Source of the DNA: a virus
Taxonomy: Duplodnaviria; Caudoviricetes
Direction: 5' to 3' (one strand)
Length of the DNA stretch: 61,944 nucleotides
Virus record (IMG/VR): IMGVR_UViG_3300036768_001294
Coordinates: 1-61,944 of that record
The notes under the pieces were generated by a model. It searched no databases. It was not told where the DNA came from and saw nothing but the letters and a program-made list of their open reading frames with translations. The position numbers were made by a program, and so were the translations under genes. Below are positions 15,118-43,235 of this stretch, in pieces (position 1 is the first letter of the stretch; each line of letters begins with the position of its first letter).

Positions 15118-16221
15118 ATGGCGCGAATTGGGATGGTCAGCATTTGGTTTCATCGTGGTCAGACGGAAGTAACCCAGACAATTCGTCGAGCCTTAGAAGA
15201 TAATGGACATGAGGTATTCATTTTTGCACGGATGGGGCAAGTGTATGGTCAAGAGAAATGTGAAAGTGCTGATCCATATTTCGCTGTGAAAAATTTGACG
15301 ACTTGGCCCAAGTATCAGATTCCAGCTAAAGTCTTAGAATTATGGTCACGCAAGAATAAGCTTGATGCCGTAGTCTTCAATGAAGAGTATGATTTTTCAT
15401 TACCAGCTATCCTTGAAGCAAGCGGCATTAAAACCATTCACTATGTAGATTTTCTCCACAGCGATTGGAGAGAACCGCTCAAGAAGCATTATCATCTACT
15501 GTGGAGCGCTACATATAGAACCTTAAAACAGCTTGAAGATTTTGGTTTGCGCGAAAAAAGCTTTGGCATCTGGTGGGGGATTAATGCCAAACATCAACCG
15601 TATCAAGGCACAATAGAACCAGATTATGATTTCTTTACCAACCAAGGTTGGTTAGGCATCAATCTCCGCAAGGGATGTGATTTCTTTCTTAAAGCTTTTG
15701 ATCTTATCAATCAGCAAAATCGGTATACGGCCTTAATCCATGCGCAGGTGCCGCCTTCAATTCTCCCAGATGATCTGCAAGCCATTGTTCACAAATACCA
15801 AGAGGCCGGAAATCTGCAATGGCTCACGGCAACAGTGCCTCCGCCGGGTTTATATCATCGTGGGAAAGTCGTTGTGCAGCCGTCCAGATTAGAAGGTCTT
15901 GGCTTGACAATTCCTGAGGCAATGTGGCAGGGGCGGGCTGTCATCACTACCGATGCACAGCCCATGAGCGAGTTTATCGTTCAGCCAGAATTGAGGGCCA
16001 AAGTATCTAGCATTCATCAACGATATGATGGGCTTACGTTCCCGGAATGCGAGGTCGATATCTCCGATCTTGCGGAAGCCATGCAATCATGCGTTTCTGT
16101 AGGAGTGTTGTGGCGGGGCTACGGTGCATTCAACAGGAATCGCGCTGTTAGTTTATTTGACTGGGAGAAGTTCTGTAAGCAGATTCAGCGCAGCCTTGAT
16201 AGATTGGGGCTTCAGTCATGA
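15118..16221 (+). CDS. Glycosyltransferase, GT-B fold (GT4-like)
   Basis: ALEDNGHEV, RKG, PSRLEGLGLTIPEAM, VITTD..PMSE, FDW. Confidence 0.88.
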   Translation: MARIGMVSIWFHRGQTEVTQTIRRALEDNGHEVFIFARMGQVYGQEKCESADPYFAVKNLTTWPKYQIPAKVLELWSRKNKLDAVVFNEEYDFSLPAILEASGIKTIHYVDFLHSDWREPLKKHYHLLWSATYRTLKQLEDFGLREKSFGIWWGINAKHQPYQGTIEPDYDFFTNQGWLGINLRKGCDFFLKAFDLINQQNRYTALIHAQVPPSILPDDLQAIVHKYQEAGNLQWLTATVPPPGLYHRGKVVVQPSRLEGLGLTIPEAMWQGRAVITTDAQPMSEFIVQPELRAKVSSIHQRYDGLTFPECEVDISDLAEAMQSCVSVGVLWRGYGAFNRNRAVSLFDWEKFCKQIQRSLDRLGLQS

Positions 16222-18075: not shown

Positions 18076-19164
18076 ATGGAAATTGTCATATTTGTCGGCG
18101 CTAGGCCGGGATATATCAAATCATGGTCTGTCTATAAGGCTTTTACGCAGCACGGAATATTTCCAACAGTTGTGGCCACTGGACAACATCATGACATTCT
18201 CAAGCAGCACCAGGAAATATTCTTGATGCCAGTCGATCATTGGTTGATAACAGAACAGCCACATTATGATTTGGCTGACCTTTATGGACAGATCTATAAT
18301 AAATCTTTTAAGTATTTGAAAGAACATTGTCCCAAAGCTGTATTTGTCAATGGTGACACAACAAGTGCTTTGGCCGCAGCGCAAGCAGCGTTTCATTTAA
18401 ATATTCCTGTAGCTCATATTGAGTCGGGACTGAGATCATTTGATCTAGAAAACCCATACCCCGAAGAATTTAATAGAATTACGATAGATGCTTTAAGCAC
18501 TTGGCTATTTCCTCCAACGGCATTAGCCGAGAGAAATTGCCGGCTTATTAATTCGCATGCATCTTCTGTTATAACCGGAAACACAGTCATAGATGCTTTG
18601 ATGGAGGGACTAAAGCTTCTTCCGCAAAATGAAATTACCTATGCCTCTAAGTATCTGCTCATAGATCTACATCGTCGTGAATTATCGGCAAATGCATTAA
18701 GTGAAATCATGGAGAAGATATTCCTGGCTGCCAAAGATCATGACTATATGGTAATTTGGCCGGCGCATCCCAATCCCAAGATTCAAGCAGAGGCTATGAA
18801 ATGGAAAGATAATGATACCTTTCTGATCATAGAGCCTCAAAATTACTTACAGTTTATTCGTCTTATGAGAGATGCCGACCTCATCCTCACAGACAGTGGT
18901 GGCGTTGTTGAAGAAGCCATTACATTAGGCACGCCAACGCTTCAGATCAGGAAGGCTACCGATAGACAGGAAGCTATTTTGCATCAGTGCTCATGGTTAA
19001 CGGGACTAGATGCCGATGAAGTTTACAGATTCTTGATTGGTGCCATTCAATATGCAGAAGAATGGCATAAATGGATTGAACGAGTCAAGAATCCTTATGG
19101 TAACGGACATGCTGGAGAAAAGATCGTTAAGTCTTTTCTAGGGAGATTGTCGCATGGCAAGTGA
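18076..19164 (+). CDS. wecB: UDP-N-acetylglucosamine 2-epimerase (non-hydrolysing)
   Basis: GARP..IK, TGQH, GDTTS, HIESGLRS, PEEFNR, GNTVID, HRRE, HPNP, TDSGG..EEA, NPYG.G.A. Confidence 0.92.
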   Translation: MEIVIFVGARPGYIKSWSVYKAFTQHGIFPTVVATGQHHDILKQHQEIFLMPVDHWLITEQPHYDLADLYGQIYNKSFKYLKEHCPKAVFVNGDTTSALAAAQAAFHLNIPVAHIESGLRSFDLENPYPEEFNRITIDALSTWLFPPTALAERNCRLINSHASSVITGNTVIDALMEGLKLLPQNEITYASKYLLIDLHRRELSANALSEIMEKIFLAAKDHDYMVIWPAHPNPKIQAEAMKWKDNDTFLIIEPQNYLQFIRLMRDADLILTDSGGVVEEAITLGTPTLQIRKATDRQEAILHQCSWLTGLDADEVYRFLIGAIQYAEEWHKWIERVKNPYGNGHAGEKIVKSFLGRLSHGK

Positions 19165-20431
19165 GCATGTTTGTCTTGTGGTCATGACGAAAAATGAGTC
19201 TGAGAATGTTTTGGCAATGCTTAAGTCCTGTGAGGGTCTATATAGTGCCGTCGTCTGGGGCTTTGACGACAAGACCGAGGATAATACGAAGGAGTTGGTG
19301 TTAGAGTATTTCAAGGACAAAGATCATATTCAACAAGTTTTCTATGATTTCACCTGGAAGAATGACTTCAGCTATGCCAGAAATCTCTATTTGGATTTAG
19401 CTCTGCAAAAGTTTCCCAATAAGCCATGGCTACTCATTCTCGATGGTGATGATCTCTTATCTCCGGGAGATCCCGATAATGGCATCCCGGATAGTCGAGA
19501 GATTATCAAGGAGCTTACCAGCCTTCCCGTGGATCAAGTCAAGAGTAAGGCCATCAATTTTTACGTGTACCTTGATCCAGATCCATACGGTATTCCTACA
19601 CTCTTCTATCCAAGAGTGCACCTCGTGCGCAATCTCCCAGACGTGCGATTTCAGTTCGCAAGCCACAATGCTATCACCGTGAGTGGAGATGAACAGATCC
19701 TCGCCCGTGAGTGCATCGTCTTACATTCTCAGAAGCCCAAGAAGCGAGCAGAACGGGAAAAGCAACGCCTAGAGATGAACGTGCCCAATCTAAAAAAACA
19801 AGGTGATATTGAAGGGCAAGATGGTGCTAGAGGTCTCTTCTATCTCGGCAATACCTTGATGGATGGTGGCGACCATGAAGGAGCCGAGAAAGCCTATCTC
19901 GAATATCTGGAGAAATCCACTTGGTCAGATGAGCGTTACCAGACTCGATTGCATTTGGCGGGACTATATCTCCTGAAAAATAAGATCGATGAAGCCGAAA
20001 ATCAGGCGAGACTGGCGCTCAGTGAACAAAACCAGTGGTCAAGAGCTGAAGCCTATGTCGTGCTTTCTGATTGTGCACTTGCACGTGGCAATACGCTGGA
20101 ATGCATCCATTGGTTGCGCATCGCTGCCTCATGCATGCCTCAAGTCAATGGTCTTTTTCTCCAGGGACATCTTTTCACCTGGTTTCCCCATTGGCGCCTG
20201 GCCATGATTTTGGATAGGCTTGGTTTCTATGAAGAAGCGCTGCATCATGCAGAACAAGCCGCGCGATATCGGCCGTCACCCGAGATTGTTCAGGGCGTTG
20301 AGATACTTCGAAATTATATCGCCATGCTCAAGCAGCTCAATAAGAAAATTGCACAACTTCATGATGTTGAAACGTTCGTGCCACTCAATTGCATTAGTCA
20401 AAAGAAATTAGCAGAGCGACTGGGCCTATGA
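19154..20431 (+). CDS. GT2 glycosyltransferase with C-terminal TPR repeats (protein-glycosyltransferase-like architecture)
   Basis: MTKNE, WKNDFSYARN, LILDGDD (DxD), H after FASH; then helical repeats (FYLGNTL, RAEAY..L). Confidence 0.8.
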   Translation: MASEHVCLVVMTKNESENVLAMLKSCEGLYSAVVWGFDDKTEDNTKELVLEYFKDKDHIQQVFYDFTWKNDFSYARNLYLDLALQKFPNKPWLLILDGDDLLSPGDPDNGIPDSREIIKELTSLPVDQVKSKAINFYVYLDPDPYGIPTLFYPRVHLVRNLPDVRFQFASHNAITVSGDEQILARECIVLHSQKPKKRAEREKQRLEMNVPNLKKQGDIEGQDGARGLFYLGNTLMDGGDHEGAEKAYLEYLEKSTWSDERYQTRLHLAGLYLLKNKIDEAENQARLALSEQNQWSRAEAYVVLSDCALARGNTLECIHWLRIAASCMPQVNGLFLQGHLFTWFPHWRLAMILDRLGFYEEALHHAEQAARYRPSPEIVQGVEILRNYIAMLKQLNKKIAQLHDVETFVPLNCISQKKLAERLGL

Positions 20432-26503: not shown

Positions 26504-27475
26504 ATGGGAGTTACAATATATCGTAGTACTGATGTTTCAGCTCCAGTTCTTAGTGGAACAACGGGAACGCTCATTGCGGTCCTTGATGCCTGTTTAGTCA
26601 ATGGTTATGGCTCTAAGCCAGCTGCTGGCTGGACAAAAGCATTCAGTGGCACCAACTTAGCCGCTTATAAAATGGGAGGCTCTATTGGCCATTATCTCCG
26701 CGTGGATGATAGCGGCCCTGGGGCTGGCGGTCCCATAGAAGCCAGAGTCCGTGGCTTTGTGACAATGAGCGATGTGAATACGGGAACGGGACCGTTTCCA
26801 ACAGTGTCACAGAAAACAAATGGCTTATTTGTCCGCAAATCAGCGACCTCGGATAGCACGCCTCGACCTTGGCTTGTTGTTGCCGATAATAAAACTTTTT
26901 ATATGTGGGTCCTCACTGGCGATGCTACAGATCGACAATATGGATGGAGTTTTGGCGAGTTTTTTTCACTAGTTCCAACAGATCCTATGAGATCCATCAT
27001 TATTGCCAGGGACACTGAAAATTCATCAACTCTGTCGTCTACCGTTGATGGTCTAGGTTTTGGAGTATTTGGTTTGGGCTCATTAGATTCGAATATTGTC
27101 GGATCGTATGTGGCTGGGACAGTCAATGGTGATGTGAGTAGCACAGCCTATGCAAGATTGGGTGATGCAGGTCTTATTACATCCCCCTCAGTAAGCGGTG
27201 GTGCATATACTGGGAGCATTCAATTTCCCAATGCTGTTAACGGACTTCTTTATGTTTCCCCAATTCGACTCAAACTTGGATCATCCAATTCCCAAATTAG
27301 GGGGCGCCTCAGAGGATTATGGCATTGGGGACATCCATTCGCCAATGCTGTAAATAACATGCAATTTGCTGGAATAGAAACACTTGCCGGGCGACAATTC
27401 ATGATTGTCAAGGGTGATTCTTCGTCTGTCACGCTTTGGGTTGTAGAGATTTCAAATACTTGGGATACTAATTAG
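26504..27475 (+). CDS. Tail/receptor-binding-type virion protein, paralog 1 of 4
   Basis: YRSTD.SAP.L.G, LDACLVNGYG, GWTKAFSGTN, YLRVDD, PFPT, RGRLRGLW, EISNTW. Confidence 0.75.
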   Translation: MGVTIYRSTDVSAPVLSGTTGTLIAVLDACLVNGYGSKPAAGWTKAFSGTNLAAYKMGGSIGHYLRVDDSGPGAGGPIEARVRGFVTMSDVNTGTGPFPTVSQKTNGLFVRKSATSDSTPRPWLVVADNKTFYMWVLTGDATDRQYGWSFGEFFSLVPTDPMRSIIIARDTENSSTLSSTVDGLGFGVFGLGSLDSNIVGSYVAGTVNGDVSSTAYARLGDAGLITSPSVSGGAYTGSIQFPNAVNGLLYVSPIRLKLGSSNSQIRGRLRGLWHWGHPFANAVNNMQFAGIETLAGRQFMIVKGDSSSVTLWVVEISNTWDTN

Positions 27476-27487
27476 GGAAGAAAGCCA

Positions 27488-28438
27488 ATGACCGTTAGAT
27501 TATATCGTAGCTCAGATGTTGGTGCTCCGGCCTTGACGGGACAGGTCAATTCACTGATCAATGTCCTGAGCGCTTGCTTAGTGGATGGCTATGGAGCTCA
27601 GGCCCCTGCATTATGGACCAAAGATTTTACGGGTGTAAACAAAGCCGTGTTTAGGGCAGGGGCTGGGCCAAAGCACTATATTCGCATCGATGATAGCGGT
27701 CCTGGGATAAATGGTGCTGCTGAAGCAAGGGTTCGAGCTTTTGAATCGATGACCGACGTGGACACAGGAACATTTCCATACCCAACAACGTCTCAGCGTG
27801 CGAATGGGATTTTTATTCGCAAGTCAGCAACTGCTGATGCAACGGTCAGACAGTGGATCGTCCTTGCTGATGAACACACCATGTATATGTTCGTATCAAC
27901 TGGAGGAACAATTGATTGGGTTGGTTGGTCATTTGGGGAATTTTTCTCATTTTCATCAATTGATGCGCAGTGGAGATCTGTCCTAATCGCCATCAATGCT
28001 GAAGGCAGTAATGCTGCTTCAGATTTCTCGCTCAGTCGAAATTTTACTCCTGGTGCTGGGGCTTCAGATGCAGCAATATATATAGCGCGCTCTGAAGATG
28101 GTACTGTGAATAGCATACAAGGGTCAATCTACGGAGATAGATCTCTTTCAAGCATAGTAACGAATAATGCTACGAATGCTGGTATCTTGGCGGCTCCGAA
28201 TCCTGTGGATGGTGGTTTTTATGTGTCAAGGATGACGCTAGCATATCTTACCTCTCCCGTCATACGAGGAATGCTGCGAGGATTTCATCACTGGGGACAT
28301 CCAAGAGGAGCGGTGGGTAATGCCGTCATTAATGGGTCCGGAAATTTTGCCGGGAAACAATTGCAGTTGATAGATGCTGGAATCGGACTTAATGCATCAT
28401 ATCTTCTAGAGATTTCTAATACCTGGGAATTGAATTGA
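27488..28438 (+). CDS. Tail virion protein, paralog 2 of 4
   Basis: Same conserved N- and C-terminal motifs, divergent middle. Confidence 0.75.
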   Translation: MTVRLYRSSDVGAPALTGQVNSLINVLSACLVDGYGAQAPALWTKDFTGVNKAVFRAGAGPKHYIRIDDSGPGINGAAEARVRAFESMTDVDTGTFPYPTTSQRANGIFIRKSATADATVRQWIVLADEHTMYMFVSTGGTIDWVGWSFGEFFSFSSIDAQWRSVLIAINAEGSNAASDFSLSRNFTPGAGASDAAIYIARSEDGTVNSIQGSIYGDRSLSSIVTNNATNAGILAAPNPVDGGFYVSRMTLAYLTSPVIRGMLRGFHHWGHPRGAVGNAVINGSGNFAGKQLQLIDAGIGLNASYLLEISNTWELN

Positions 28439-29442
28439 TGACGGTTAGAGCTTTTACAAATCTTAGTGTCAGTAATAGCCTCACCGGACAAGCTGGAAGC
28501 CTTATTGACATACTCGATGCTTGTCTTGTCAGTGGTGCCGGTTGGACCAAAGCGTTTTCTGGCACGAATAAAGCTGTATATCGGGCTCCACAGGGTCAGC
28601 AATTCTATCTTCGCGTTGACGACACCGGGCCAGGGGCTCATGGAGGACGTGAAGCCAGAGTTCGCGGTTTCGAGTCAATGACCGATGTCGATACAGGCAC
28701 AAATCCATTTCCCACTGTTGCTCAGAAAGCCAATGGACTATTTGTTCGTAAGTCAGCAACTGCCGATACCACAGTTCGCTCATGGAAGGTCTTTGTGGAT
28801 GAACGCACATTTTATATGTTTATACAAACTGGTGACATTGCCGGCACCTATTTTGGTTGGGCATTTGGTGAGATCTATTCTTTCAAGACAAACGACCCTG
28901 GACGAACGATTCTCATTGCTAGGCCCAATGAAGCCAATACGAGCGGTTATGCTGGAGATGAGCCATTTGCCTATGCTATCGTGAAGCCTTCAAATCTGTC
29001 CCAACCAGCCCACTACCTCGCTAGAGCTGTTGGTGGAGGTGCTGGAGCAAAAGCTTGTGGAAAGATCCAGGCTGGTCTCACTTCTTCAAAAGACCTCGAT
29101 AATCAAGTGACCGAGGCCCTACCGATTATTGGTTATTTGGATCAACCTCCGACCACCAGTCATCGATGGAAGCTTGCAAGCTTACGAGTAATCGAAGATG
29201 ATGGCTCTGGAAACATGGTCATTCGCGGTCGGCTTCGCGGACTCATGCAAGTCTGTCATCATCCAGCGTACGCACAAACCATCCTCATAGACAATGCAAT
29301 ATTTTCAGGTCAAGGAAATCTTGCCAATCGGGCGTTCCAGACAGTTTTGGTATTGGGACGAGCAGCATTTGACTCAACGGGCAAAATCGCTTCTGGCAGC
29401 GCTGCCGCCGTTGAAATCACAGATTGGGAAGTCTCATCATGA
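28438..29442 (+). CDS. Tail virion protein, paralog 3 of 4
   Basis: Same motifs (LDACLV, GWTKAFSGTNKA, EARVRGFESM, RGRLRGL). Confidence 0.75.
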   Translation: MTVRAFTNLSVSNSLTGQAGSLIDILDACLVSGAGWTKAFSGTNKAVYRAPQGQQFYLRVDDTGPGAHGGREARVRGFESMTDVDTGTNPFPTVAQKANGLFVRKSATADTTVRSWKVFVDERTFYMFIQTGDIAGTYFGWAFGEIYSFKTNDPGRTILIARPNEANTSGYAGDEPFAYAIVKPSNLSQPAHYLARAVGGGAGAKACGKIQAGLTSSKDLDNQVTEALPIIGYLDQPPTTSHRWKLASLRVIEDDGSGNMVIRGRLRGLMQVCHHPAYAQTILIDNAIFSGQGNLANRAFQTVLVLGRAAFDSTGKIASGSAAAVEITDWEVSS

Positions 29443-30404
29443 CTGTAAGACTGTACCAGTCTACAGATACAAGCGCTCCATCACTCACAGGAGAAAATGG
29501 ATCGCTTATTACTGTACTTGATGCTTGCCTTGTCAACGGCTACGGAACAAAAACTGCTGCGGGGTGGACCAAAGCTTTCAGCGGAACAAACAAGGCTGCA
29601 TATCGCATGGGTTTGGGGCTCCAGAACTATGTAAGAGTTTACGATGATGGCTCATCCGGAGATGGGCGCCAAGCACTTACACGCGGATTTGAGACCATGA
29701 GCGATGTCGATAACGGTCTCCTGCCTTTTCCAACAGTCCAACAACGATTGCAAGGAATCTTCATTCTCAAATCCACGACAGCAGATAGTACAGCGCGCCC
29801 GTGGAAGATCTTAGCCGATGAACGCACCATCTATATGTTTACTAAGCCGGATGGCTCGACATTTTGGTCAGGCTGGATGTATGGCGAAATTAATTCTTTT
29901 GTTAGTGGTGATCTAGGTCGATCTTCCATCGTTGGAAGAATTGCTTCGATGTCGAATACACCAGCCGATGGAGAATGGCTTGATCGTTACACTCATCTCT
30001 TAGGCTTCTCAGTTGATGGTCTCTCATCTTTTCATTACATGGCACGCCCTGTAGATTACACAAAGACTGGATCAGTAGAAGGCGGCCAAGGTGGTGACCT
30101 GGAAATCCTCAAAGCTGGTACTGTGAGAGACCCTGGCATTTCCCGCCCCAATCCCGCCGACAATCGTACATATCTCTCCCGCATTTATGCATTCTCATTA
30201 GCCGTAGGCGGATCGAGAGGATCAATTCGCGGTTACTTGAGGGGCCTTTGGCAGTATTGTCATCCAAGCAGCACGGTCACGGATGGAGACGTACTAACCG
30301 GTGCCGGATCATTAGCCGGTCGATCATTTTTGATTCTTAAGCCAACGGGAAATTCAATCGTATATTGTCTTGAAACATCAAACACTTGGGACACATCTAG
30401 CTAA
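29439..30404 (+). CDS. Tail virion protein, paralog 4 of 4
   Basis: Same motifs (LDACLVNGYG, GWTKAFSGTNKA, RGYLRGLW, ETSNTW). Confidence 0.75.
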   Translation: MTVRLYQSTDTSAPSLTGENGSLITVLDACLVNGYGTKTAAGWTKAFSGTNKAAYRMGLGLQNYVRVYDDGSSGDGRQALTRGFETMSDVDNGLLPFPTVQQRLQGIFILKSTTADSTARPWKILADERTIYMFTKPDGSTFWSGWMYGEINSFVSGDLGRSSIVGRIASMSNTPADGEWLDRYTHLLGFSVDGLSSFHYMARPVDYTKTGSVEGGQGGDLEILKAGTVRDPGISRPNPADNRTYLSRIYAFSLAVGGSRGSIRGYLRGLWQYCHPSSTVTDGDVLTGAGSLAGRSFLILKPTGNSIVYCLETSNTWDTSS

Positions 30405-30835: not shown

Positions 30836-31582
30836 ATGGATATTCCAGAAGACGAAGTTTGGATACCAACAGGAGAAAAGGGTCGTCCGCCCAAATTTTC
30901 TCCCAAGTATGGCTTAGAACATCGGGCCCTCGCTTATGAAGCATTCTTAAAAGGGGCGAATTGGACAGATTGCGCGAGGGCTTTTGCCCATCATGATCCT
31001 GCAAAAACTGGACGCATGCTCGTCAAAAAATGGGCAAAAGAAGATGGGTGGCGGCGTTCTATCAAGGCTGATCAGCAGTATAAGATGAAGATCGAACAGA
31101 GAATCACGACTGATCCCGTTCGAATCTCAAGAGAGATTGATATACTTTGCTTGAAAATGCAGCAAGTTGCAGAAAATTATATCGAAGGATTCTTTGAGGT
31201 CGATGATGAAGGGCAGCAGAAAGTTGTCATCGACGCAGCATTCAAAACCAGAGATTTTGCTGATATGGCTGCCGCATTGCGGATGATTCACGAGACCAGA
31301 ATCAAGATCCGAAAAGCCACCGAGGAAGTCAATAAGACAAATAAACAGGGTGGCGGGAAAGATTTCATCTCATTCATGAAGGAAATTGGTAAAGAGAAGA
31401 TGGCCGAGCGGAATGCCCTCGTGAAAATAGAAACTTCGCATATCAACAAGGAATCATGGGATGCCTACAAAGCGCGCAGACAAAAAGCTGACCGCGAAAA
31501 TTCGGAAGCTTCCGAAGAAGACGATGCGGGAGAATCCGAAGACACGTCTTATTCGCGAACCACCTATCCCGAGATTACATAG
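30836..31582 (+). CDS. terS: Putative terminase small subunit
   Basis: GRPPK, HTH-like region ending KWAKEDGW, helical middle; directly precedes TerL. Confidence 0.65.
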   Translation: MDIPEDEVWIPTGEKGRPPKFSPKYGLEHRALAYEAFLKGANWTDCARAFAHHDPAKTGRMLVKKWAKEDGWRRSIKADQQYKMKIEQRITTDPVRISREIDILCLKMQQVAENYIEGFFEVDDEGQQKVVIDAAFKTRDFADMAAALRMIHETRIKIRKATEEVNKTNKQGGGKDFISFMKEIGKEKMAERNALVKIETSHINKESWDAYKARRQKADRENSEASEEDDAGESEDTSYSRTTYPEIT

Positions 31583-33203
31583 GACGCACAAAGATATCTG
31601 GAACTTTATCACCGATGAACAAGTAACTCCAGATGCAGCATATGGCGAGCTTAAGCAAATCTTCAAACGCTACTACGATGATCCTGTGCGATTCGTTACC
31701 GACACTCTTGCACCGGTTGCCTACACTGGAAGACTTGGACCAGATCCCTGGCAGTGCGATGTCTTAGAAGCCCTCCTCGAACATCGTCTCGTAGCCGTAA
31801 AATCCGCCCATGGTGTCGGCAAAACCAGCTGCTGCGTGTTTGCTGCATATTGGTTTCTCACAACTCGATATCTTTCCAAAGTCCCCATCATCGCCCCCAC
31901 CTTTGGCAAGCAGATCAAAGCCATGATCTTTGCCGAGATGCATTTGTGGCGGAAGCGCTCCTTGCTGCGCGATATCTATACCAGCAATCAGACCAAAATC
32001 GGCATTGTAGGCGCAGAGATGGAGTGGTTTGCTGAGGGCGTTGCGGCTGAGGAACCCGATAAAGTTGAAGGCTTCCATGCCCCTGGTGGCGTCTTTTATA
32101 TCCTTGACGAAGCCAAAGGCATTAAGCACAAGATTTGGGATGCTGCAAGAGGCGCACTCACCGGCACAGAAGATCGCATGCTAGCCGTATCCACTCCGCC
32201 TCTCGCTCCCGTTGGCGAGTTTGTCAGAGTCTTCACCCATTTGCGAACCACCTGGAAGACCTTTTCCATTGGTCCCACACCGCGTCAATCTAAGGAATGG
32301 CGTCAAGAGCGTGAGCGAGAATGGCCAAAGGGATCGCCAGAGTATGTTTCTAAAATCTTGGGAGAAATTCCCACATCTGCAACAGATCGTACCATCATTC
32401 CGCTCAATCTCATCGAAGCCGCCATGAAACGTCAGCCGACAGCAGAGATGTTGAAAGGGCCGTCGCGGATTGGCATGGATGTGGCGCGTTATGGGCAAGA
32501 CTCAACCGTTTTAGCCTTCCTACAAGGCAAGGCAGTAACCAGGCTTGAAACATTTTCCAAGCAAGATACGGCCACAAGTGCAAAGATCCTCGAAGAGGCA
32601 CTGCCGTATTATGATAGCGCACAGATCGATGAAGTCGCCGTTGGTGCAGGAGTCATCGATCCCCTATCTCATCATCCTGAGTTGAAAAAGAAGATCATTC
32701 CCGTCCGCGCCAACGATGCTTCACCAGAGCCAGAGCGGTATCATAATCTGGCGACATGGATGTGGTTTAAATTTTTGGAGTGGCTTGAGGCTGGAGGCAT
32801 ATTGCCATACGATGATGAACTCTGCTCTCAGTTAGCCTCAAGAGAGTACGAGTGGCATTACCAGTACGGAAGGATGAGCCGGCGCCTCACCTCCAAATCA
32901 AAATTAGCCACTTCCGGCAAATCACCGGATAAAGCCGAAGCCGTCATTCTCGCTGTCGTTCAAGTACCAAGAGCAATGGCTGTGATTCTTGGTGATAAAG
33001 ATATGAAAGAAGAACAAGAGAGTCTTAGGAGTCTCGAAGAGAAAGCTCAATCCATCCGTCGATTAAGATCACAAGAAAAAGAAGCAGTTGATGAAGCACC
33101 AGAAGATCGACGGCTTGATCGTTTGGGAATCCATAGTCATCATCGTAAACAACAATTCTTTTCGAGGGAAAAATCAATTGGATTTTGGAGACGAAAGCCT
33201 TGA
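31461..33203 (+). CDS. terL: Terminase large subunit
   Basis: PDPWQ, KSAHGVGKT (Walker A), APT..Q, ILDEAKG (Walker B), STP, GMDVARYGQD nuclease motif, SPDKAEA. Confidence 0.92.
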   Translation: MPTKRADKKLTAKIRKLPKKTMRENPKTRLIREPPIPRLHRTHKDIWNFITDEQVTPDAAYGELKQIFKRYYDDPVRFVTDTLAPVAYTGRLGPDPWQCDVLEALLEHRLVAVKSAHGVGKTSCCVFAAYWFLTTRYLSKVPIIAPTFGKQIKAMIFAEMHLWRKRSLLRDIYTSNQTKIGIVGAEMEWFAEGVAAEEPDKVEGFHAPGGVFYILDEAKGIKHKIWDAARGALTGTEDRMLAVSTPPLAPVGEFVRVFTHLRTTWKTFSIGPTPRQSKEWRQEREREWPKGSPEYVSKILGEIPTSATDRTIIPLNLIEAAMKRQPTAEMLKGPSRIGMDVARYGQDSTVLAFLQGKAVTRLETFSKQDTATSAKILEEALPYYDSAQIDEVAVGAGVIDPLSHHPELKKKIIPVRANDASPEPERYHNLATWMWFKFLEWLEAGGILPYDDELCSQLASREYEWHYQYGRMSRRLTSKSKLATSGKSPDKAEAVILAVVQVPRAMAVILGDKDMKEEQESLRSLEEKAQSIRRLRSQEKEAVDEAPEDRRLDRLGIHSHHRKQQFFSREKSIGFWRRKP

Positions 33204-36373: not shown

Positions 36374-36964
36374 TTACGCCTCCTCTAAGAGATTCGAACC
36401 TTCCGCATCACGCGGAGCTTCCATCATGGCATCGCCTTCCTGACCATCATCATAGTGGCCTTCCTTGATTTTGGCAAAGAACTCCACGCCATTCTTGTCC
36501 CGCGCCGTGACTAACCAGTCAAATGTGACAAAAGGGCGGCTCTTTAAAAAGCTGGATTGCTCGATCTTCCGCAGAATCTCCTCCCAGTCTCGACGCTCCG
36601 GCATCAGCTTCAGAGCCCGACGAATCGCCCGCCGTCGTCCGGGACTAATCACGGTCACGCGCTTGCGCTCATCTTGAACCCAGCTATTCCAGAGATCCAC
36701 GAGGTTTTGGACATTATCGGAAAATCGACGTGATGCCAAGTGGTGATGCCGAGCCGCCTGTTCCGGATAAGAGAGGAGGCTAGGAACATCATCATCAAGG
36801 AAAAGCTCATAGCGCGAATCAATCTTGGCAAGATCCCGAAGCGAGACAAGCGCTGCAATCGCCTTAGAATTCCGGACAATCACAATGGGCTTGCCAATCT
36901 CCTGAATAGAATCCAGCAACTTCTTCACATTAATCGACAATTCAGAAGCCGTGATTTGTTGCAT
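36374..36964 (-). CDS. Phd/YefM-type DNA-binding domain fused to a phage replication-initiator-like C-terminal domain
   Basis: N: ITASEL...KKLLD.I...GKPIVIVRN.K.IAALVS (Phd); C: LWN, R...I...L, S.FL, TFDWL, KI.EG.YD. Confidence 0.65.
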   Translation of the reverse strand: MQQITASELSINVKKLLDSIQEIGKPIVIVRNSKAIAALVSLRDLAKIDSRYELFLDDDVPSLLSYPEQAARHHHLASRRFSDNVQNLVDLWNSWVQDERKRVTVISPGRRRAIRRALKLMPERRDWEEILRKIEQSSFLKSRPFVTFDWLVTARDKNGVEFFAKIKEGHYDDGQEGDAMMEAPRDAEGSNLLEEA

Positions 36965-37035
36965 CGTCCTGCTTTCTCCTAATTTTCAGATTGTTGCGAA
37001 AACGTTTCACCAAGACCAACCATCCAGCTGCCTAT

Positions 37036-37064
37036 GATATAGCATCAAGCTAGGAACAGGTCAA
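37036..37064 (-). promoter_or_regulatory. Sigma70-type promoter for the leftward replication operon
   Basis: Minus strand TTGACC-17 bp-TATATC with extended TGn, ~70 bp upstream of the 36964 start. Confidence 0.55.
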
Positions 37065-37281
37065 GAGCGAATTCTGAATGCGATGAAAAAAATCTGACAC
37101 CCGTCTTTCCACGACGAACCTCCAATCTTTTTCCATATGTTGTTCCACAAAACCCATCCCACCCTTCTTTCCACCTTCCGCCAATAAATCCAACCATATA
37201 GCATATTCAACTGCCTCACCACCGCCACACCACAAAAGAAAATTCCCTTCCCCCCACACCCCCTATCCCTTTTAAGAAAAT

Positions 37282-37331
37282 ATGAGTGAGTGAGTGAGTG
37301 CTTGCTTTTTTTCTTTTTTTTTTTTTTTTTT
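37282..37331. repeat. (GAGT)4 microsatellite and long poly-T tract
   Basis: TGAGTGAGTGAGTGAGTG followed by T7-C-T18. Confidence 0.85.
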
Positions 37332-37372
37332 AAGAAGAAAAGAAACCAGAAGCTTTTACTTCTAGACCTTAG

Positions 37373-37464
37373 ACTGGTAGCTCATCTGAAGATTACTGGC
37401 TTCTGATTCAGCCTACGACTCTATACTGGTAGCTCATCTAGGGTCCTTACGGCTTCTGATTCAG
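37373..37464. repeat. Two-copy ~52-bp direct repeat
   Basis: ACTGGTAGCTCATCT (37373, 37425) and GGCTTCTGATTCAG (37398, 37451). Confidence 0.85.
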
Positions 37465-37508
37465 TCTTTGTCTTTTCTTTTACCCCTCAAAGGTCAAAGC
37501 TTAAACCC

Positions 37509-37695
37509 TAGATACCGTTTGCTTTGAGAGATGTTAATCCTGCCTCCCTCCAATATCTTACCACGGTGGTACTACCTTAAAAGCCACAGACTCTAGGCTT
37601 CCCACCTATCCTTAGATACGGTTTGCTTTGAGAGATGTGATTCAAACCCCCTCCATGATTCTACCACGGTGGTACTACCTAAAGAACCACAGACT
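37509..37695. repeat. Two-copy ~104-bp direct repeat containing palindrome TACCAC-G-GTGGTA
   Basis: TAGATACnGTTTGCTTTGAGAGATGT (37509, 37613), TACCACGGTGGTACTACCT (37559, 37662), CCACAGACT (37584, 37687). Confidence 0.85.
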
Positions 37696-38352
37696 TTAAA
37701 CTCCGTTCCCATTAGCTTATATTGTGAGATAGCTAGACACATCCTGACTTTAAATCAAACAAGCTAAAACCAAGTCGGAAAGCTTAAGCTGCAAATTCTT
37801 TTTGTCTTTCAAAAAATTAAAAAAAATCCCCTCTCTCACGAATGCACGCACGCACTAGAATTTCTTTGAGGTAGGGGGGGCGCGGGGGGGAAGGAACTTT
37901 CTTTTCCAGCGCCACACCGCTCGCCAAAATCCATCATCAGCAGGTCCGCAAAGGCCTATGAAATCCGGAAATGGGCGTAAAACGCTCAGAATTGGTTTAT
38001 AGGGCGAGTTAAGGAGAGAGGGTATATGTTGGTAGCGGGTAGGAGAAAAAGTTTCAATAGCGGGCAAAAGAGAGGGGAAAAAGGGGTAAATTGGAAGTTG
38101 ATGCCAGACCCATTTTTAGGGTTGGAAGAAATTGACCCTCTCCCTATAAACCATCTCGGGGGGGTTGCTCAGGGGATACAAAAAATTTTGGGTATGGATT
38201 GGGGGATGGATGGTTGGGAAATATTCTGGCTGGCATTTGGCCGCCCCTGATAGGGTCACGTAATCTGTCTCCACTCTTTATCGCTTCCCACTCTTGCTCT
38301 TCCCTCTTGCTCCCTACCAGCTCCCCCCTCCCTCATCATGAGCCCCTCATTT

Positions 38353-38403
38353 TGAGGGTCAAATTTTGACCCTCTATTTCTGAACCTCACTTTCTGACCC
38401 TCC
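38353..38403 (-). repeat. Array of four TGA-N3-TC(A) sites at 14-bp period (left array)
   Basis: TGAGGGTCA 38353, TGACCCTCT 38367, TGAACCTCA 38381, TGACCCTCC 38395. Confidence 0.8.
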
Positions 38404-38594
38404 ACAATCGCCTCTCATTTTGATAGGCCACCCCCGTTTCGGAAGTGGGAGTTTTCGTGTTCCTTGTTGCCCAGAATTACAATATCGTAATCCGATAACA
38501 TAAGTGCTGGATTTATAAGGGGGCAATTTCAAAAAAAATAAAGTGCCGAGCTGCGAGGCCACATCTGGCGCGGGTTTGCAGGCTTTTTAGGCCC

Positions 38595-39480
38595 TAGACG
38601 AGGCAGCTGGTGGGGCTAGAGCGACCAGCGGTTAGGGCAAAGCCAGGCAGCATAGGCGATGACGTGGGGAAAGAGTTGCGGGCCCGCGCGGGGCCGGCGT
38701 CGGTGGGGCCGCGTCGCCCCCGGGCATGCTGCGTGCAGGGGGCGGGCGCGGGGGCCGCCGAGGGCGCGTGGGCGGTTGGGGGCGGGGCGAGCGCCTGGGC
38801 GGGCCTGGCGGCTGCGGCACGCATCATGCCCTGGGGGCTGCGGGCGTGGGGCGGCGGCACGGGCACGAGATAGCCGCTGGGCCGATCCGGCGGGTGAGTC
38901 CTGGGGCCGTGGGAGACCGCCAAGCCCCGCCAAACCTGGGCGTCCCGGGAGTGTGGCGGGAGTTGGCCATAGTTTCATCCCACCCACTCCCACCCTAAAC
39001 ACACCAGCTCAAGCGGCCAGAGCCGGCCAAGCCGCGTGGCTGGCCGGTTCCGTATACCCCCCGGGGGTATCGAGGCCAAGCCAGACGGGCGCGTCCGGGG
39101 GGTCTCACCAGCGTCTGGCAGTTTGGTGGTGAGAAGTGTCGGTGCGCCGGGGCGCTCGGGCATGCCGCTGGCAGGCGCTGCGCGCTGGCCAGCGTCACGC
39201 CCTTCGCTTCGGGGCGTGGAGGCGCCGGGCTGGTCTCCGCGGGCGTTGGGCTGGGCCGTGGGTCCACTCCGTGCTTCCCGCTGCACGGCGCGTCCCGCCC
39301 CTGGGAGCGGGTTGGTGGGGCCGTGGGTCTACCCAGTGCTTCTCGCCCAGCTCGGTGCCCCGCCCCCCAATGGCTCGCTCTGCCTAGGGGCCTCTGCTGC
39401 TGGGGCCTGTTCAGGTTGCCACCCACGCTTCTTGGGCCTGTTCGGGTTGTCACGGCTGCTTCTTGGCTCCGCGCTATATA
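38595..39480. other. Very GC-rich island with no credible gene
   Basis: Visibly far higher GC than the flanks; all six frames give only low-complexity A/R/P/G ORFs without RBS. Confidence 0.75.
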
Positions 39481-39906
39481 CCTCCCTCCCCCTGGGGGAG
39501 TGAGAACCTGAACTAAATATATATATCTCCCCCGGGGGGATCTTTGTACCCCCCCTCCCCCCTCAGATATAGTTGTCTATTCCTCAAAATTTGAAGATTG
39601 CCTAATTGCAGCCACGTTTTCACCAACCCCCTAATTTTTCTGCACGAGGCTTGGGCGTTCCCCCGCTCGGGCGTGTGTGGTGGGCATAGGCGCTGGTGGC
39701 AAGCGGAGCCGTGGAGAAGGTCTGGCCCGAGCGGGGTCCGGCCACTCGGCAGAGCCCGAGCCCGCTTCGCGGTCTCGGCCCTACGGGCGAGTGTCCGTAA
39801 CGCCTCCGAACAAATCAGGGCAAGTTCCACTGCTGGGTGAGAAGAAGCGAAAGCAGGAGACGATCCCCCCTAAATCCCCCGCTGGGGGACTTTGGAGAAG
39901 AAAGAG

Positions 39907-40146
39907 CCCGCCCCCTCCCTGAGCTGAGGGGAATATACGCGGGGAAGCTCGCCGCAAGGGACCTCAGCCCTCCCGACATCCGGTTGTATTTGTCGAGCGC
40001 GCATAGGGGATGACACGCGCTCGACAAATCTCCACCGGAACGGTCGGGAGGGGCCGAGGGCTCCCCCGTTGCGGCGAGCGGTCAGTGGTGAAGGAACACA
40101 TACCGCATCACCCGCGTAAAGATCTCAGCTAAGGGGAGGGGGCGGG
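39907..40146. ncRNA. ~240-nt rod-like fold-back (candidate structured RNA or ssDNA element; strand unknown)
   Basis: Nested perfect stems: 39907-19/40134-46, 39922-28/40124-30, 39936-43/40111-18, 39947-57/40069-79, 39968-77/40043-52, 39979-84/40034-39, 39988-40001/40016-29. Confidence 0.55.
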
Positions 40147-40154
40147 TTTAAAAC

Positions 40155-40205
40155 TGAGGGTCAACGTGTGAGGGTCAGATTTTGAGGGTCAGAAATTGAT
40201 AGTCA
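40155..40205 (+). repeat. Array of four TGA-N3-TCA sites at 14-bp period (right array)
   Basis: TGAGGGTCA at 40155, 40169, 40183; TGATAGTCA at 40197. Confidence 0.85.
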
Positions 40206-40359
40206 GCAGGGGGAAGAGTGAGGATTGGGGGAGTGGCTCAAGGGAGCCGAAAAAAAGTTTGTGTGAGATTAAAGGATCGTGAGGACATGCCGATAATTAA
40301 ATTAGGCAAATACTTTGTGTTGTCTGGGGGAATTGTTGGACAATTGGAGGGAGAAGGCC

Positions 40360-41550
40360 ATGTACCAAGACTTCTTAGCATTCAATCATTTCACGGCAAC
40401 AGGCGAGAAGACGTTTCGGGTTTACGAGGCGCTCATAGAGCATGAGCACTGCAATGCATTGGAGCCATTAGCCGATCACTTCCCAGAGCATCGGGAAGGA
40501 GAGGCGACAGAATTAGATCCACATTATCCCATTGATCCGGCCTTTCATCATCGCCCTGATTCATTTGAGCCCGCCCCATGCGGGCTTTCGACGAGGCAAC
40601 GGATTGACTGGGAGGACCTTCGTCTCAAAGGCGGCAGGGTGATAGGCCGCCATGAAGTAGTCTCGGACATGCCGTATTATCTTACAGCGCAGTTTATTGC
40701 TCGCAAATTGGGCTGCACCGTGGCCCAAGGCCAAATTCTATCGCGTCTGTGGCAGGCCTTAGATGCCACTGAATCCATGGTGCTGGAATTTGCAGAGCAG
40801 TTTCAATCTGCGGATATGGCGATTCAGTACTTTTCTGAGTTGGTAGAACAACTGCCAGTGATCGATCCGGACGATGCGCTTGAGCATCGTGTCGAGAGCG
40901 ATGTAGCCAATCTGTATCATGACATGACGGCGGAGAAGGCATTGTTGGCACTGGAGAAGGTCCCTAGTGCCGCAATGATTGCTCACAGACTCAATGTCTC
41001 GCTGGCAAGAGCTGGTGAGATTCGCGAAGAGTTGTTACTGGCGGTATCCGATCCGCAGGTAGGCATGATGGGCGAAGACGAAGAAGAAGATGAATTGGAA
41101 GAGGAAGAGGACGATGCCGATCTTCGGGCGTGTCTTTCTGAAGGTTGGCACTTGATGGATGACCTGGATGACAGGGACCCAGATTCCTGGCTGCAAAGCC
41201 AGCCCGCTCATATCCAGGTTATCATTTCTAAAGTCCGTCGGGCCACGACCTTGGCAGAGCTAGGTCGCTTGGCTCAGCGTCTATATGCTGAGCCCGAGCG
41301 TTGGTCCAAGGTGCAGTCCGGGGCGTTCTGGGCTGAGTATTCGGCCCGGAAGCAGCACATTCAGCATGATCTCATTCACCGCCATGCTCGCCTGCGGCGC
41401 GCCCTGGAGAAGCTGCGCACCCTCCATGGCGCCGATTTGGCCAGGGCGGGGAAGCGCTTGTTCCTCTTGCAGAGGGAGCAACCATCCTTCTATACCCAGG
41501 ATGGTTGGACCCTCTTATGGGGAGAATATAAGGCCCTGAAGTCTAGGTAA
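40360..41550 (+). CDS. Hypothetical protein with two HTH-like repeats, an acidic tract and two C-terminal helical repeats
   Basis: RBS GGAGG; AQFIARKLGCTVAQG / AAMIAHRLNVSLARA; EDEEEDELEEEEDD; FWAEYSARK / LWGEYKALK. Confidence 0.65.
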   Translation: MYQDFLAFNHFTATGEKTFRVYEALIEHEHCNALEPLADHFPEHREGEATELDPHYPIDPAFHHRPDSFEPAPCGLSTRQRIDWEDLRLKGGRVIGRHEVVSDMPYYLTAQFIARKLGCTVAQGQILSRLWQALDATESMVLEFAEQFQSADMAIQYFSELVEQLPVIDPDDALEHRVESDVANLYHDMTAEKALLALEKVPSAAMIAHRLNVSLARAGEIREELLLAVSDPQVGMMGEDEEEDELEEEEDDADLRACLSEGWHLMDDLDDRDPDSWLQSQPAHIQVIISKVRRATTLAELGRLAQRLYAEPERWSKVQSGAFWAEYSARKQHIQHDLIHRHARLRRALEKLRTLHGADLARAGKRLFLLQREQPSFYTQDGWTLLWGEYKALKSR

Positions 41551-41704
41551 CCGTCAAGGGACGGGGAAGATGTTTATCTTTCCCCGTCCTAATTTTTCGC
41601 GGAACAAAACCGTCAAGGGACGGGAAAGAAGTCTTCGGTGTCCGTCCTTGGCATAAAAATTGCGGGCAAAAAATCGCCTCGCTGCGCTCGGCGATTTTTT
41701 GCCC
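41549..41704. repeat. Intergenic direct and inverted repeats
   Basis: AACCGTCAAGGGACGGG x2 (41549, 41608); hairpin GGACGGGGAA/TTCCCCGTCC; 15-bp IR GGGCAAAAAATCGCC/GGCGATTTTTTGCCC (41664-41704). Confidence 0.8.
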
Positions 41705-41797
41705 ATCGGCGTGCTTGACGTTATCGAGAATAGGCCCTCTAAATTGAATGGTATCTGTGTGGGGGCGAGTTAGGAGGTTTAGAAGGCTAGTAGCTAG

Positions 41798-42127
41798 ATG
41801 GAGGATAAAGGCATGATCAGAGTTGAGAATTATCGGACCTACACCGGTCCGGGTGAATATGTAGGAAGGCCATTCCCGCTCGGCAACCCGTTTATGATTG
41901 GACAAGATGGAAGCCGGGAAGAAGTCATTGAGAAGTATCGACAATGGCTTCGTCAGCAATGGCGGAAAGGCGGAGTGGTGAAGGAAGAGTTGCTGTGTCT
42001 TGTCGAGAAGTATAAAAGGAAAGGGTCTTTAGTCCTAGTGTGTCATTGCGCGCCGCTGCCGTGTCATGCCGATGTGATTAAGTCGGCAATCGAGGGGATC
42101 GTGAGGAAAATGCATGTGGGAAATTGA
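41798..42127 (+). CDS. DUF4326 domain protein
   Basis: YVGRP..LGNPF.IG.DG.REEVIEKY..WL, L.C.CAP.PCHADVI. Confidence 0.85.
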   Translation: MEDKGMIRVENYRTYTGPGEYVGRPFPLGNPFMIGQDGSREEVIEKYRQWLRQQWRKGGVVKEELLCLVEKYKRKGSLVLVCHCAPLPCHADVIKSAIEGIVRKMHVGN

Positions 42128-42217
42128 AGAGGATTTGGATTTCGAAAGGAGGTACATGGATATTGATCCAGTGTACCGGAAGTTTAAACGCTTTAGTAGT
42201 GATGAAAGGAGTCTATT

Positions 42218-42442
42218 ATGCTAATTCGAGCATCGCTCTTCATCTGGTTTGCAGCAACCTTCTTCACTTTAGTATCGTCGATCTATTTAGTGAAGCATGC
42301 CCAACCGCCGGAGCAGCCGCGTCCAATAATCATCATCGTGCCGGCACCGCCCGCCCCGCAGCGGGAGGTGCCGAAAGGCGATGGGATGATATCTGCAAGC
42401 AGTGAAGAAAGGACGACGTTATACATTGACAAGTGGGCGTAA
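42218..42442 (+). CDS. Small membrane protein
   Basis: RBS AAGGAG; single TM then Pro-rich tail. Confidence 0.55.
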   Translation: MLIRASLFIWFAATFFTLVSSIYLVKHAQPPEQPRPIIIIVPAPPAPQREVPKGDGMISASSEERTTLYIDKWA

Positions 42443-42467
42443 AGAGGCTTAAGAAAGGAGAATAGTC

Positions 42468-43235
42468 ATGGATTTTGGAATGTTAAACGCCATCAATCGT
42501 GCGAAACAGAGCTTAACAATGTCCGGCAATCGTGCCTATCAGCGCCATTCACTAATAGTTGAGCTTCATGGGTTGAACAAGATGCGGGTAAGTCGAAAGG
42601 AGATGATCACACGCCGGACAACGTCCTATCTTCCCAACGGCATGATCTTGGTGTACAACATGAAGTATAGTCTAGTTATCTCAGAACCATATTCCGACGC
42701 TGAGATGCCCGAACCTCCCACCCATGAGCTTTACCAGTGCGAGTGGGTTGGGGGAGAGGTCCCGAAGGGATTAGTGTCCTCCTTCATAAATGAGGCTATC
42801 GGCCTTGGATTGATCACGAAGGATGACTTCTCAAACCCCATTGTCAAGGTCTTTACATCCCGTGCCGTTGTAGGCTGGTGGCTTCCCGAAGAAGGATCAT
42901 ATCGGCAAGTCTATCGGCTGAAGGATGAGATCGACGAAGCCATAAGCTCGTCTGAAGTGTTGCTTTCTTCGAAGCGTGTTGAGATTCGAAGGGGGCAGGT
43001 GGAAATGAGCCGCCATTCATGGAATGCCTTCAATGAGACCATTAGCTTGATGGAGGGCGTGTCCCTGACGTTCGGTCGGGGGCGCGAAAGCAGGACGTTG
43101 CCGCCACTGGGATACTCGGCGGGCGAGTACAGTGTCGTTTGGTCGCTGAATGCTGATGGTCCCATCAGCATCGACGACCAGATGATTGATATCGGGACTG
43201 AGACAGTCCCGATCTTCGTGCTGTACCGTCTGTAA
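42468..43235 (+). CDS. Hypothetical protein
   Basis: RBS AAGGAG; 255 aa. Confidence 0.65.
   Translation: MDFGMLNAINRAKQSLTMSGNRAYQRHSLIVELHGLNKMRVSRKEMITRRTTSYLPNGMILVYNMKYSLVISEPYSDAEMPEPPTHELYQCEWVGGEVPKGLVSSFINEAIGLGLITKDDFSNPIVKVFTSRAVVGWWLPEEGSYRQVYRLKDEIDEAISSSEVLLSSKRVEIRRGQVEMSRHSWNAFNETISLMEGVSLTFGRGRESRTLPPLGYSAGEYSVVWSLNADGPISIDDQMIDIGTETVPIFVLYRL

Follow-up and report, generated by a model that had tools for sequence, protein, structure and literature searches.

What is the 240-nucleotide (nt) fold-back at positions 39907–40146 of the tailed-phage record IMGVR_UViG_3300036768_001294, and on which strand and in which chemical form does it act? The record analysed here, called the window below, is the whole stretch of 61,944 bases, linear and about 60% complete, and the fold-back lies near the right edge of a 3.3-kb region of it that is poor in open reading frames (ORFs; 36965–40359), between a leftward block of genes and the rightward early/replication operon. 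We find that it is a single-copy, conserved and strand-specific structured element of the replication/early-control region of what appears to be a novel phage lineage, and that it functions either as a structured RNA or as a single-stranded DNA (ssDNA) fold, in neither case of a described family. The reading that we favour, with a probability of roughly 30–40%, is tentative: a leftward-transcribed structured RNA that controls the early operon, as a countertranscript or another kind of regulator.

The locus was first picked out by a sequence-only reading that listed a nested series of stems, a side insert of about 31 nt and an apical loop at 40002–40015, all of which we recover both in the sequence and as helices of the minimum-free-energy (MFE) structure. 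The comparison with dinucleotide shuffles that it proposed gives a z-score of about −12 on both strands. As RNA, the plus strand folds at −158.3 kcal/mol, against −98.4 +/- 5.0 kcal/mol for the shuffles (z −12.1), and the minus strand at −163.2 kcal/mol (z −12.5), with 0 of 200 shuffles as good on either; DNA parameters give −91.0 (z −12.2) on the plus strand and −91.6 (z −11.9) on the minus strand. The pairs are nearly all Watson-Crick, with G.T accounting for 2 of 92 on the plus strand and 4 of 90 on the minus strand. When segments of 150 nt were scanned along 36900–40379, those over the hairpin scored z −5.7 to −8.8 and the next best −4.9, −4.7 and −4.5, and the hairpin is the sole extreme structure of the ORF-poor region. 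It is 65% GC in a phage of 46% GC; structured RNAs are often GC-enriched in AT-richer genomes. The largest two-sided loop in the fold measures about 6 by 4 nt, the 31-nt insert being one-sided, and in the minus-strand version three extra weak pairs narrow the apical loop to 8 nt (CAUCCCCU).

The motif GCATAGGNGNTG occurs three times in the window, always on the plus strand and within the GC-rich part of the region (38650–38661, 39684–39695 and 40001–40012), and its third copy is the apical loop of the hairpin. Three copies compare with 0.12 expected, and 0 of 100 shuffles reach that number, for a pattern that was itself defined from these copies. The folds at the GCATAGG copies at 38650 and 39684 are unremarkable (z +0.6 to −1.7).

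Evidence for function comes from a distant relative. Homologs were sought in five DNA loci, L003–L007, which have 31–38% identity by tblastn to the 396-aa protein encoded immediately to the right of the hairpin. The 8.1-kb locus L006 has the gene order of the window: genes for a phrog_10105-like protein and a DnaD-like initiator run leftward, with an integrase fragment beyond them, and are followed by an ORF-poor stretch whose GC content is raised, more mildly than in the window, and then by rightward genes. At the right edge of that stretch lies a fold-back of 223 nt (3921–4143), 48 nt from the first rightward gene, where the window has a gap of 213 nt. The anchor protein that flanks it is 30% identical to its counterpart in the window. 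We built a covariance model, R1, from the window hairpin alone, using the minus strand and its MFE structure. It matches L006:3921–4143 on the minus strand over its full length with 50.0 bits (E ~8.5e-10, a rough value owing to a short calibration), in the same orientation and gene neighbourhood. The reverse strand of the same hairpin receives 5.4 bits, and the best unrelated match in 82,830 bases 17.8 bits. Because the difference between 50 and 5.4 bits reflects orientation-specific features common to both sequences, the match is not a mere resemblance between two long hairpins.

Within the 61,944 bases R1 finds one copy. The homology is visible by eye and to the covariance model only, blastn with a word size of 7 giving nothing significant between the window region and L003–L007. 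The short upstream DNA of L003, L004, L005 and L007 holds no hairpin, which is not evidence of absence. A hairpin pattern applied to 185,579 GTDB species genomes returned 13 matches, all of them chance and none confirmed by R1.

Folded on its own, the L006 element has z-scores of −7.7 (minus strand) and −4.2 (plus strand), and this independent fold is the unbiased part of the evidence for selection on structure. Among the 90 pairs of the model, 37 have changed on both sides in L006 and still pair, 32 are identical, 4 differ on one side, 12 no longer pair and 5 fall in gaps. Canonical pairs amount to 73 of 85; sliding the partners by 1–3 columns leaves 26–39 of 74–81, and 2000 partner shuffles give 33.3 +/- 4.2, none reaching 73. 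Identity is higher in the unpaired columns (26 of 48 identical) than in the paired ones (72 of 174). The minus-strand apical loop, CAUCCCCU in the window and CUUCCACC in L006, agrees at 5 of 8 positions, with a pyrimidine-rich consensus C.UCC.C. In the side hairpin GUG/CAC becomes GUU/AAC, pairs 48–62 and 49–61 remaining as they were and pair 50–60 changing from G-C to U-A, around a CCTTC (CCUUC) loop that is identical in both. The internal loop sets GGAG opposite ACA in the window and ACU in L006 (alignment columns 114–117 and 161–163), and the stem flanking it has changed from CCGGU/ACCGG to CCAGGU/ACCUGG.

The fold-back has thus been kept in a distant syntenic relative, where substitutions in one arm of a stem are matched by substitutions in the other. 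Since 37 double-sided pair changes preserve the rod, and since its loops are more conserved than its stems, selection has acted on structure; this agrees with the earlier suggestion of structural selection as opposed to a recent inverted duplication. That the structure under selection is a single-stranded fold we regard as very probable. The parts of the fold-back and the features around it are listed in Table 1.

Table 1. Coordinates in the window of the fold-back, its parts and the neighbouring features
Feature	Position	Strand	Description
Bulged rod-like fold-back, 240 nt	39907-40146	minus (likelier functional strand)	supported by folding, homolog, compensatory pairs, wobble bias
Outermost stem	39907-39920/40133-40146		13-14 bp
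Stem	39922-39929/40123-40130		7-8 bp
Stem	39936-39943/40111-40118		8 bp
Stem	39947-39957/40069-40079		11 bp
Two 4-bp stems	39958-39961/40062-40065 and 39962-39965/40056-40059		
Stem	39967-39977/40043-40054		4+7 bp with 1-nt bulge
Stem	39979-39984/40034-40039		6 bp
Innermost stem	39988-40001/40016-40029		14 bp
Apical loop	40002-40015		14 nt, CATAGGGGATGACA
One-sided 31-nt insert	40080-40110	minus	small side hairpin GUG/CAC with CCUUC loop
Asymmetric internal loop	40030-40033 opposite 39985-39987	minus	GGAG (CTCC on plus) facing ACA
Right array	40155-40205	plus	9-mer TGAGGGTCA exact at 40155, 40169, 40183, plus degenerate TGATAGTCA at 40197; 14-bp spacing
Left array	38353-38403	minus	plus-strand copy at 38353, then three 1-mismatch inverted copies at 38367, 38381, 38395; 14-bp spacing
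GC-rich (60-86%) ORF-poor segment	38560-39906		between the arrays; hairpin at right end
Leftward initiator gene (putative)	36374-36964	minus	PF02604 1.8e-08; phrog_19658 4.6e-12, phrog_10469, phrog_345; left border of non-coding region
First rightward gene	40360-41550	plus	396-aa acidic protein, no known family; anchor for finding relatives
Sugar/modification-type gene set	6782-8149, 12339-14405, 9665-11390, 15016-16221, 19154-20431		

The two elements also indicate which strand is used. As RNA, the L006 fold-back is worth −115.3 kcal/mol on the minus strand and −93.3 on the plus strand, a gap of 22 kcal/mol that shrinks to 7.4 kcal/mol with DNA parameters; in the window the strands differ by 5 kcal/mol as RNA and by nothing as DNA. 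In the model structure the minus strand carries 4 G.T pairs in the window and 6 in L006, one of them common to both (model pair 81–200), with 0 and 1 A.C mismatches, respectively, and the plus-strand MFE structure of the window has 2 G.T pairs. The tally of wobbles is about 10 on the minus strand against 3 on the plus strand (p ~0.05, one-sided, by our own binomial estimate). The wobble and energy data favour a single-stranded form of the minus strand over a duplex or a cruciform, and the fact that RNA parameters give the wider gap between the strands speaks mildly for RNA rather than ssDNA. On balance, we consider the minus strand to be the probable functional strand, and we put the chances that it functions as RNA at about even.

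These observations bear on the view that the fold-back works as duplex DNA, either through mirrored protein-binding arms or as an extruded cruciform, which an initiator or a repressor would use at the origin or at an early promoter. Such an element would fit the equally good folding of both window strands, the almost purely Watson-Crick pairing and the adjoining array of protein sites. Its dyad symmetry, however, is broken by conserved one-sided features, namely the 31-nt insert and the GGAG/ACA loop, and the stem sequence has been free to change while pairing is kept, which is the opposite of what protein sites do. A cruciform that needs both hairpins would, moreover, not tolerate equally well the 6 versus 1 wobbles that the two strands carry in L006. 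We therefore hold a duplex element to be improbable.

If the minus strand does act as RNA, leftward transcription would yield a product of ~230–300 nt that is antisense to the leader region of the rightward early/replication operon. It would form a bulged rod displaying the 8-nt apical loop, the CCUUC side hairpin and the GGAG/AC(A/U) internal loop, and pairing could start at its C/U-rich loops, whose exact complements are the purine-rich loops of the plus-strand leader, which resemble Shine-Dalgarno sequences; alternatively, the loops could pair in trans with similar ribosome-binding sequences. Such pairing would set the level or the timing of early/replication gene expression. The regularly spaced bulges might prevent RNase III from cutting the long helix as a simple substrate, a role that would match that of the bulges in known countertranscripts (CopA/CopT, RNA I/II). 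We infer all four parts of this scheme: transcription, an RNA rather than an ssDNA form, antisense pairing and the effect on expression.

The countertranscripts CopA/CopT (plasmid R1), RNA I/RNA II (ColE1), sar (P22) and OOP (lambda) are likewise encoded in a replication or early control region. They have long bulged stems with functional, conserved loops and covarying stems, and they overlap the leader of the operon that they control. Such RNAs have a promoter and a terminator of their own on the strand opposite to that leader, and the transcripts of the two strands overlap in vivo. Conserved loops on a bulged stem whose sides covary are what we observe in the fold-back. Unlike them, however, the present element is 2–4 times longer, with a helix of ~90 bp, it has a three-way side hairpin, no promoter or terminator has been found for it, and it is known here from DNA alone.

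Several points weigh against a countertranscript. Known antisense RNAs measure 60–110 nt, not 240 nt, and perfect helices of 11–17 bp are probably RNase III targets. The covariation rests on two sequences, and its pair counts depend on an alignment that was itself fitted to the model. It is mainly L006 that gives the strand bias, given how little the strands of the window differ, and the split of 10 to 3 wobbles could stem from strand-biased mutation. The sequencing runs that hold this DNA, among those listed, are DNA runs only, with no RNA run. Three promoter-like sites were found in a scan with a sigma-70-type consensus, none of them near the hairpin on either strand and none within 39907–40146; the host may use another promoter type. 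By eye, the 3' arm of the minus strand contains TTGCGG-N14-TATATT, and L006 TTGACA-N13-TAAATT, with spacings that are 3–4 bp too short. In L006 a leftward promoter would have to sit inside the next gene, because only 48 nt lie between the two. Finally, no convincing intrinsic terminator bounds the hairpin on either strand, the terminator-like sites nearby being weak, such as the hairpins 35–55 nt downstream on the minus strand (39872–39854).

The fold-back is itself not an intrinsic terminator: no T-run follows it on either strand (TTTAAAAC comes after the hairpin on the plus strand, CTCTTTCTTCTCC on the minus strand) or in L006, and it is not among the 10 terminator-like sites found.

The initial impression that no Rfam family is recognisable in the fold-back was borne out, with 0 matches at gathering scores in the whole window. 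At E<=1, the interval 36900–40400 gave 3 matches, all to miRNA-precursor models far below the gathering score and none of them genuine. Our search of literature listings found no description of such an element, and we make no claim that it is unpublished. The sequence-only reading had concluded that the locus encodes a noncoding RNA (ncRNA) or forms an ssDNA structure, and in this general form its inference stands, but the particular candidates that it named find no support. One was a packaging RNA; phage pRNA gives no Rfam match at E<=1. Another was a decoy of RNA polymerase resembling 6S RNA, which is also rod-like and ~200 nt long. 6S RNA, which binds sigma-70 holoenzyme and templates pRNA, is, however, characterised by a large two-sided central bubble that mimics an open promoter, and neither strand of the fold-back has such a bubble, nor is there a covariance match to RF00013 and its relatives at E<=1.

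A decoy or scaffold RNA acting in trans could also take other forms and could come from either strand, for example as a sponge for an RNA-binding regulator or a defence sensor, in addition to the 6S-like polymerase mimic. In shape and size the rod resembles 6S RNA and decoys of the adenovirus VA type, its loops are kept while the stems drift, and it is GC-enriched relative to the genome; on the plus strand the loops read GGA purine motifs (AGGGGAUG, GAAGGA) of the type bound by CsrA-type proteins. Two GGA loops are nevertheless few for a sponge, and the empty Rfam result, with its three spurious matches, the lack of a two-sided bubble and the lack of an RNA run among those listed all count against a decoy, which we judge quite unlikely. 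It is also unlikely, in our view, that the locus encodes a large phage ncRNA of a new class, whose visible and best-folded domain would be the hairpin; this would be a rod of ~230 nt that acts in trans and not as a simple antisense RNA. An RNA of this class could possibly continue into the 1.3-kb ORF-free segment of 60–86% GC to the left, and its GC enrichment would then reflect selection for RNA stability. It would act on polymerase or the ribosome, as a decoy for a regulator or defence sensor, or as a primer or R-loop RNA that fires an iteron origin.

The hairpin was said to end 8 bp before an operator array, and so it does: TTTAAAAC follows it, and the first TGAGGGTCA of the right array begins at 40155, 8 nt from the hairpin end. 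Exact copies of TGAGGGTCA number four in the window, three in the right array and one opening the left array, and a lone further copy of this type lies at 38133–38141 on the minus strand. Together the two arrays bracket 1.75 kb with up to 86% GC in a phage of 45–50% GC. The right array probably consists of sites for an initiator or repressor. A candidate binder is encoded at the left border of the region, where the product of 36374–36964 appears, by its family matches, to be a fusion of a Phd/YefM-like N-terminal domain with a DnaD-like/replication-initiator C-terminal domain. Because of its Phd/YefM-type N-terminal domain, this protein is a natural candidate for binding the closely spaced TGAGGGTCA sites, whose 14-bp spacing we take to resemble that typical of Phd/YefM operators. 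Its counterpart in L006 (1489–2673, minus strand; 394 aa) matches its C-terminal part only. The adjacency of hairpin and array is real in the window but is not conserved, the L006 hairpin having no adjoining array. L006 does contain an 8-mer, GAAGTCAA, in 13 copies (10 plus, 3 minus) over 3691–7788, where 0.23 are expected and 0 of 200 shuffles reach that number; these copies are dispersed over 4 kb of intergenic and coding DNA in its rightward operon.

This arrangement brings in the main rival to the countertranscript, a single-strand priming signal of the phage origin. Under it, the TGAGGGTCA arrays would be iterons bound by the Phd-N/DnaD-like initiator, and a fork or bubble would open leftward from the right array. 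The minus strand, being the lagging template, would fold, and primase, RNA polymerase or a primosome would read its loops and lay the first primer. The hairpin is separated by 8 nt from an array of 14-bp spacing and shares its intergenic region with the gene for the DnaD-like initiator. Its fold is equally extreme with DNA parameters (z −11.9 to −12.2), its pairs in the window are nearly all Watson-Crick, and its strand-specific function would fit a minus strand that serves as the lagging template of a leftward fork. Genes further downstream encode SSB, a RecE-like exonuclease and a DnaB-like helicase. We consider such a signal a real but doubtful possibility, for reasons that emerge from a comparison with known systems.

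A long imperfect palindrome on one strand and in one orientation, as in ssoA and M13-type origins, is what the locus contains. The single-strand origin (sso) ssoA is defined by its CS-6 loop, TAGCGT, and its RSB site; TAGCG and its complement are absent from 39907–40146, as is an RSB site, so that ssoA is rejected by its loop motif. Together with the M13/f1 minus-strand origin and the Frpo elements of conjugative plasmids, ssoA, which belongs to rolling-circle plasmids, resembles the fold-back in being an imperfect one-strand, one-orientation structure of 150–300 nt that is recognised via unpaired features and lies beside a replication origin. These elements differ from it in serving replicons with an obligatory ssDNA stage, whereas the present host of the element is a tailed double-stranded DNA phage without such a stage. 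Frpo elements are ssDNA folds that mimic duplex promoters (PMC11541004) and have −35/−10 hexamers separated by 16–18 bp in the folded stem; no hexamers at this spacing are found in the folded stem here, those on the 3' arm of the minus strand being 3–4 bp too close.

The RSF1010 (IncQ) oriV (PMC8567376) offers another parallel in that iterons stand directly beside a large inverted repeat in the origin. Its inverted ssi repeats, ssiA and ssiB, are two 40-nt repeats on opposite strands that are used by the primase RepB'. The phage element, unlike RSF1010, is one continuous rod of 240 nt for which one strand is favoured, and the contig yielded no primase resembling RepB'. Nor did the 61 window ORFs scanned against Pfam and PHROGs, on a contig that is ~60% complete and has many ORFs without a family, include a primase or a HUH or other rolling-circle Rep. 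Two further points count against a priming signal: the L006 hairpin lacks an adjoining array, GAAGTCAA being dispersed, and RNA energies separate the two strands more widely than DNA energies do.

A terminal hairpin had also been proposed. The protelomerase site telRL of N15 type is a large palindrome in a phage genome, poxvirus-type telomere junctions are imperfect palindromes, and the fold-back is likewise a long imperfect palindrome. Among the contigs listed for sequencing run X2, which comes from another study and holds 86% of sampled words, one (39399–40012, 0 differences) ends in the apical loop; this end may be coverage or strain noise. Unlike telRL and the poxvirus junctions, however, the fold-back has no dyad at its centre: its 14-nt apex lacks the self-complementarity that a telomere-resolvase site needs. 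No protelomerase or resolvase gene was seen among the ORFs scanned, and a Logan contig of run X1 covers 37346–43000 with 0 differences and reads through the hairpin at even depth. Because that contig spans the region without a difference, a chimera made by the assembler is excluded, with the reservation that the source sample may be X1 itself. A miniature inverted-repeat transposable element (MITE), another dispersed palindrome or a duplication remnant fares no better, since the fold-back is present in a single copy in the window, R1 confirmed none of the 13 pattern matches in GTDB species genomes, its flanks are not inverted repeats, and its position is syntenic in L006 despite an anchor protein of 30% identity. 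Both the telomeric and the mobile or duplicated origin are largely refuted and, to us, hardly credible.

The GC-rich segment to the left of the hairpin adds several observations. Its parts at 38560–39480 and 39650–39900 have 77–86% GC with a moderate excess of G on the plus strand, and their folding z-scores are mostly unremarkable. None of its 10 ORFs has a Pfam match at E<=0.1. A variant in X2 diverges by ~12% over 38823–39087. Four short C5-6/G5-6 palindromes (for example TATCTCCCCCGGGGGGATC) lie at 39053–39071, 39484–39498, 39524–39542 and 39866–39882, and some of these palindromes score as terminator-like sites.

Further left, the ORF-poor region contains (GAGT)n followed by a T-run of ~25 with one C (37274–37345), where the Logan contigs of both runs break. 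Next come two pairs of tandem repeats (37365–37467 and 37506–37698) with periods of ~52 nt and ~103 nt and 84–94% identity, which may be operators or small RNA genes; the longer unit contains a perfect palindrome, TACCACGGTGGTA. On the plus strand at 38026–38250, inside the supposedly non-coding region, an ORF of 74 aa has a strong ribosome-binding site, AAGGAG, and no Pfam or PHROG match.

The remainder of the window is that of a tailed phage, with a large terminase (31461–33203), SSB (47335), the RecE-like exonuclease (56231) and the DnaB-like helicase (59298), and without tRNA or tmRNA genes. The leftward block beside the ORF-poor region encodes a dCTP deaminase, a phrog_10105-like protein and the 196-aa Phd/YefM-DnaD-like protein. 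Four tandem paralogs of 316–335 aa at 26504–30404 belong to the 'tail assembly protein' family phrog_9600/9998. The phage also carries two B12-binding radical SAM proteins, a nucleotide-sugar epimerase and several glycosyltransferases, which form a large sugar- or modification-type gene set (Table 1).

That the lineage is novel is suggested by the lack of relatives in GenBank phages and in the copy of IMG/VR searched. No close relative was found among GenBank phages by DNA or by three window proteins; specifically, blastn of 37000–40400 and tblastn of the 396-aa and 235-aa proteins gave no match there, and blastn of 38430–40210 gave none among plasmids. The IMG/VR copy returned zero matches for the 396-aa protein, the initiator, alignment A1, the large terminase TerL, the iteron pattern and two hairpin patterns, and alignment A1 had no match in GTDB species genomes. 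The 396-aa protein has five relatives, of 32–75% identity, in a protein collection, and an ESM Atlas search with it gave no usable match. Closer metagenomic relatives do exist (proteins P0003, P0004, encoded on a 63-kb contig, and P0009), which brings a proper covariation test within reach.

Structured non-coding elements of phages are still found mostly by accident, and few candidates offer the evidence assembled here: a homolog at the syntenic place in a distant relative, pair changes that compensate each other, loops that are conserved and a bias towards one strand. If the fold-back acts as RNA, the repertoire of phage regulators would grow by a bulged rod of unusual length; if as ssDNA, it would be a rare priming signal of the sso/ssi type in a tailed double-stranded DNA phage. 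The element occupies the very region that decides on replication initiation and early transcription, close to the iteron-like arrays and to the gene for an unusual, predicted Phd-DnaD fusion initiator, and its function would show how this lineage starts or throttles replication.

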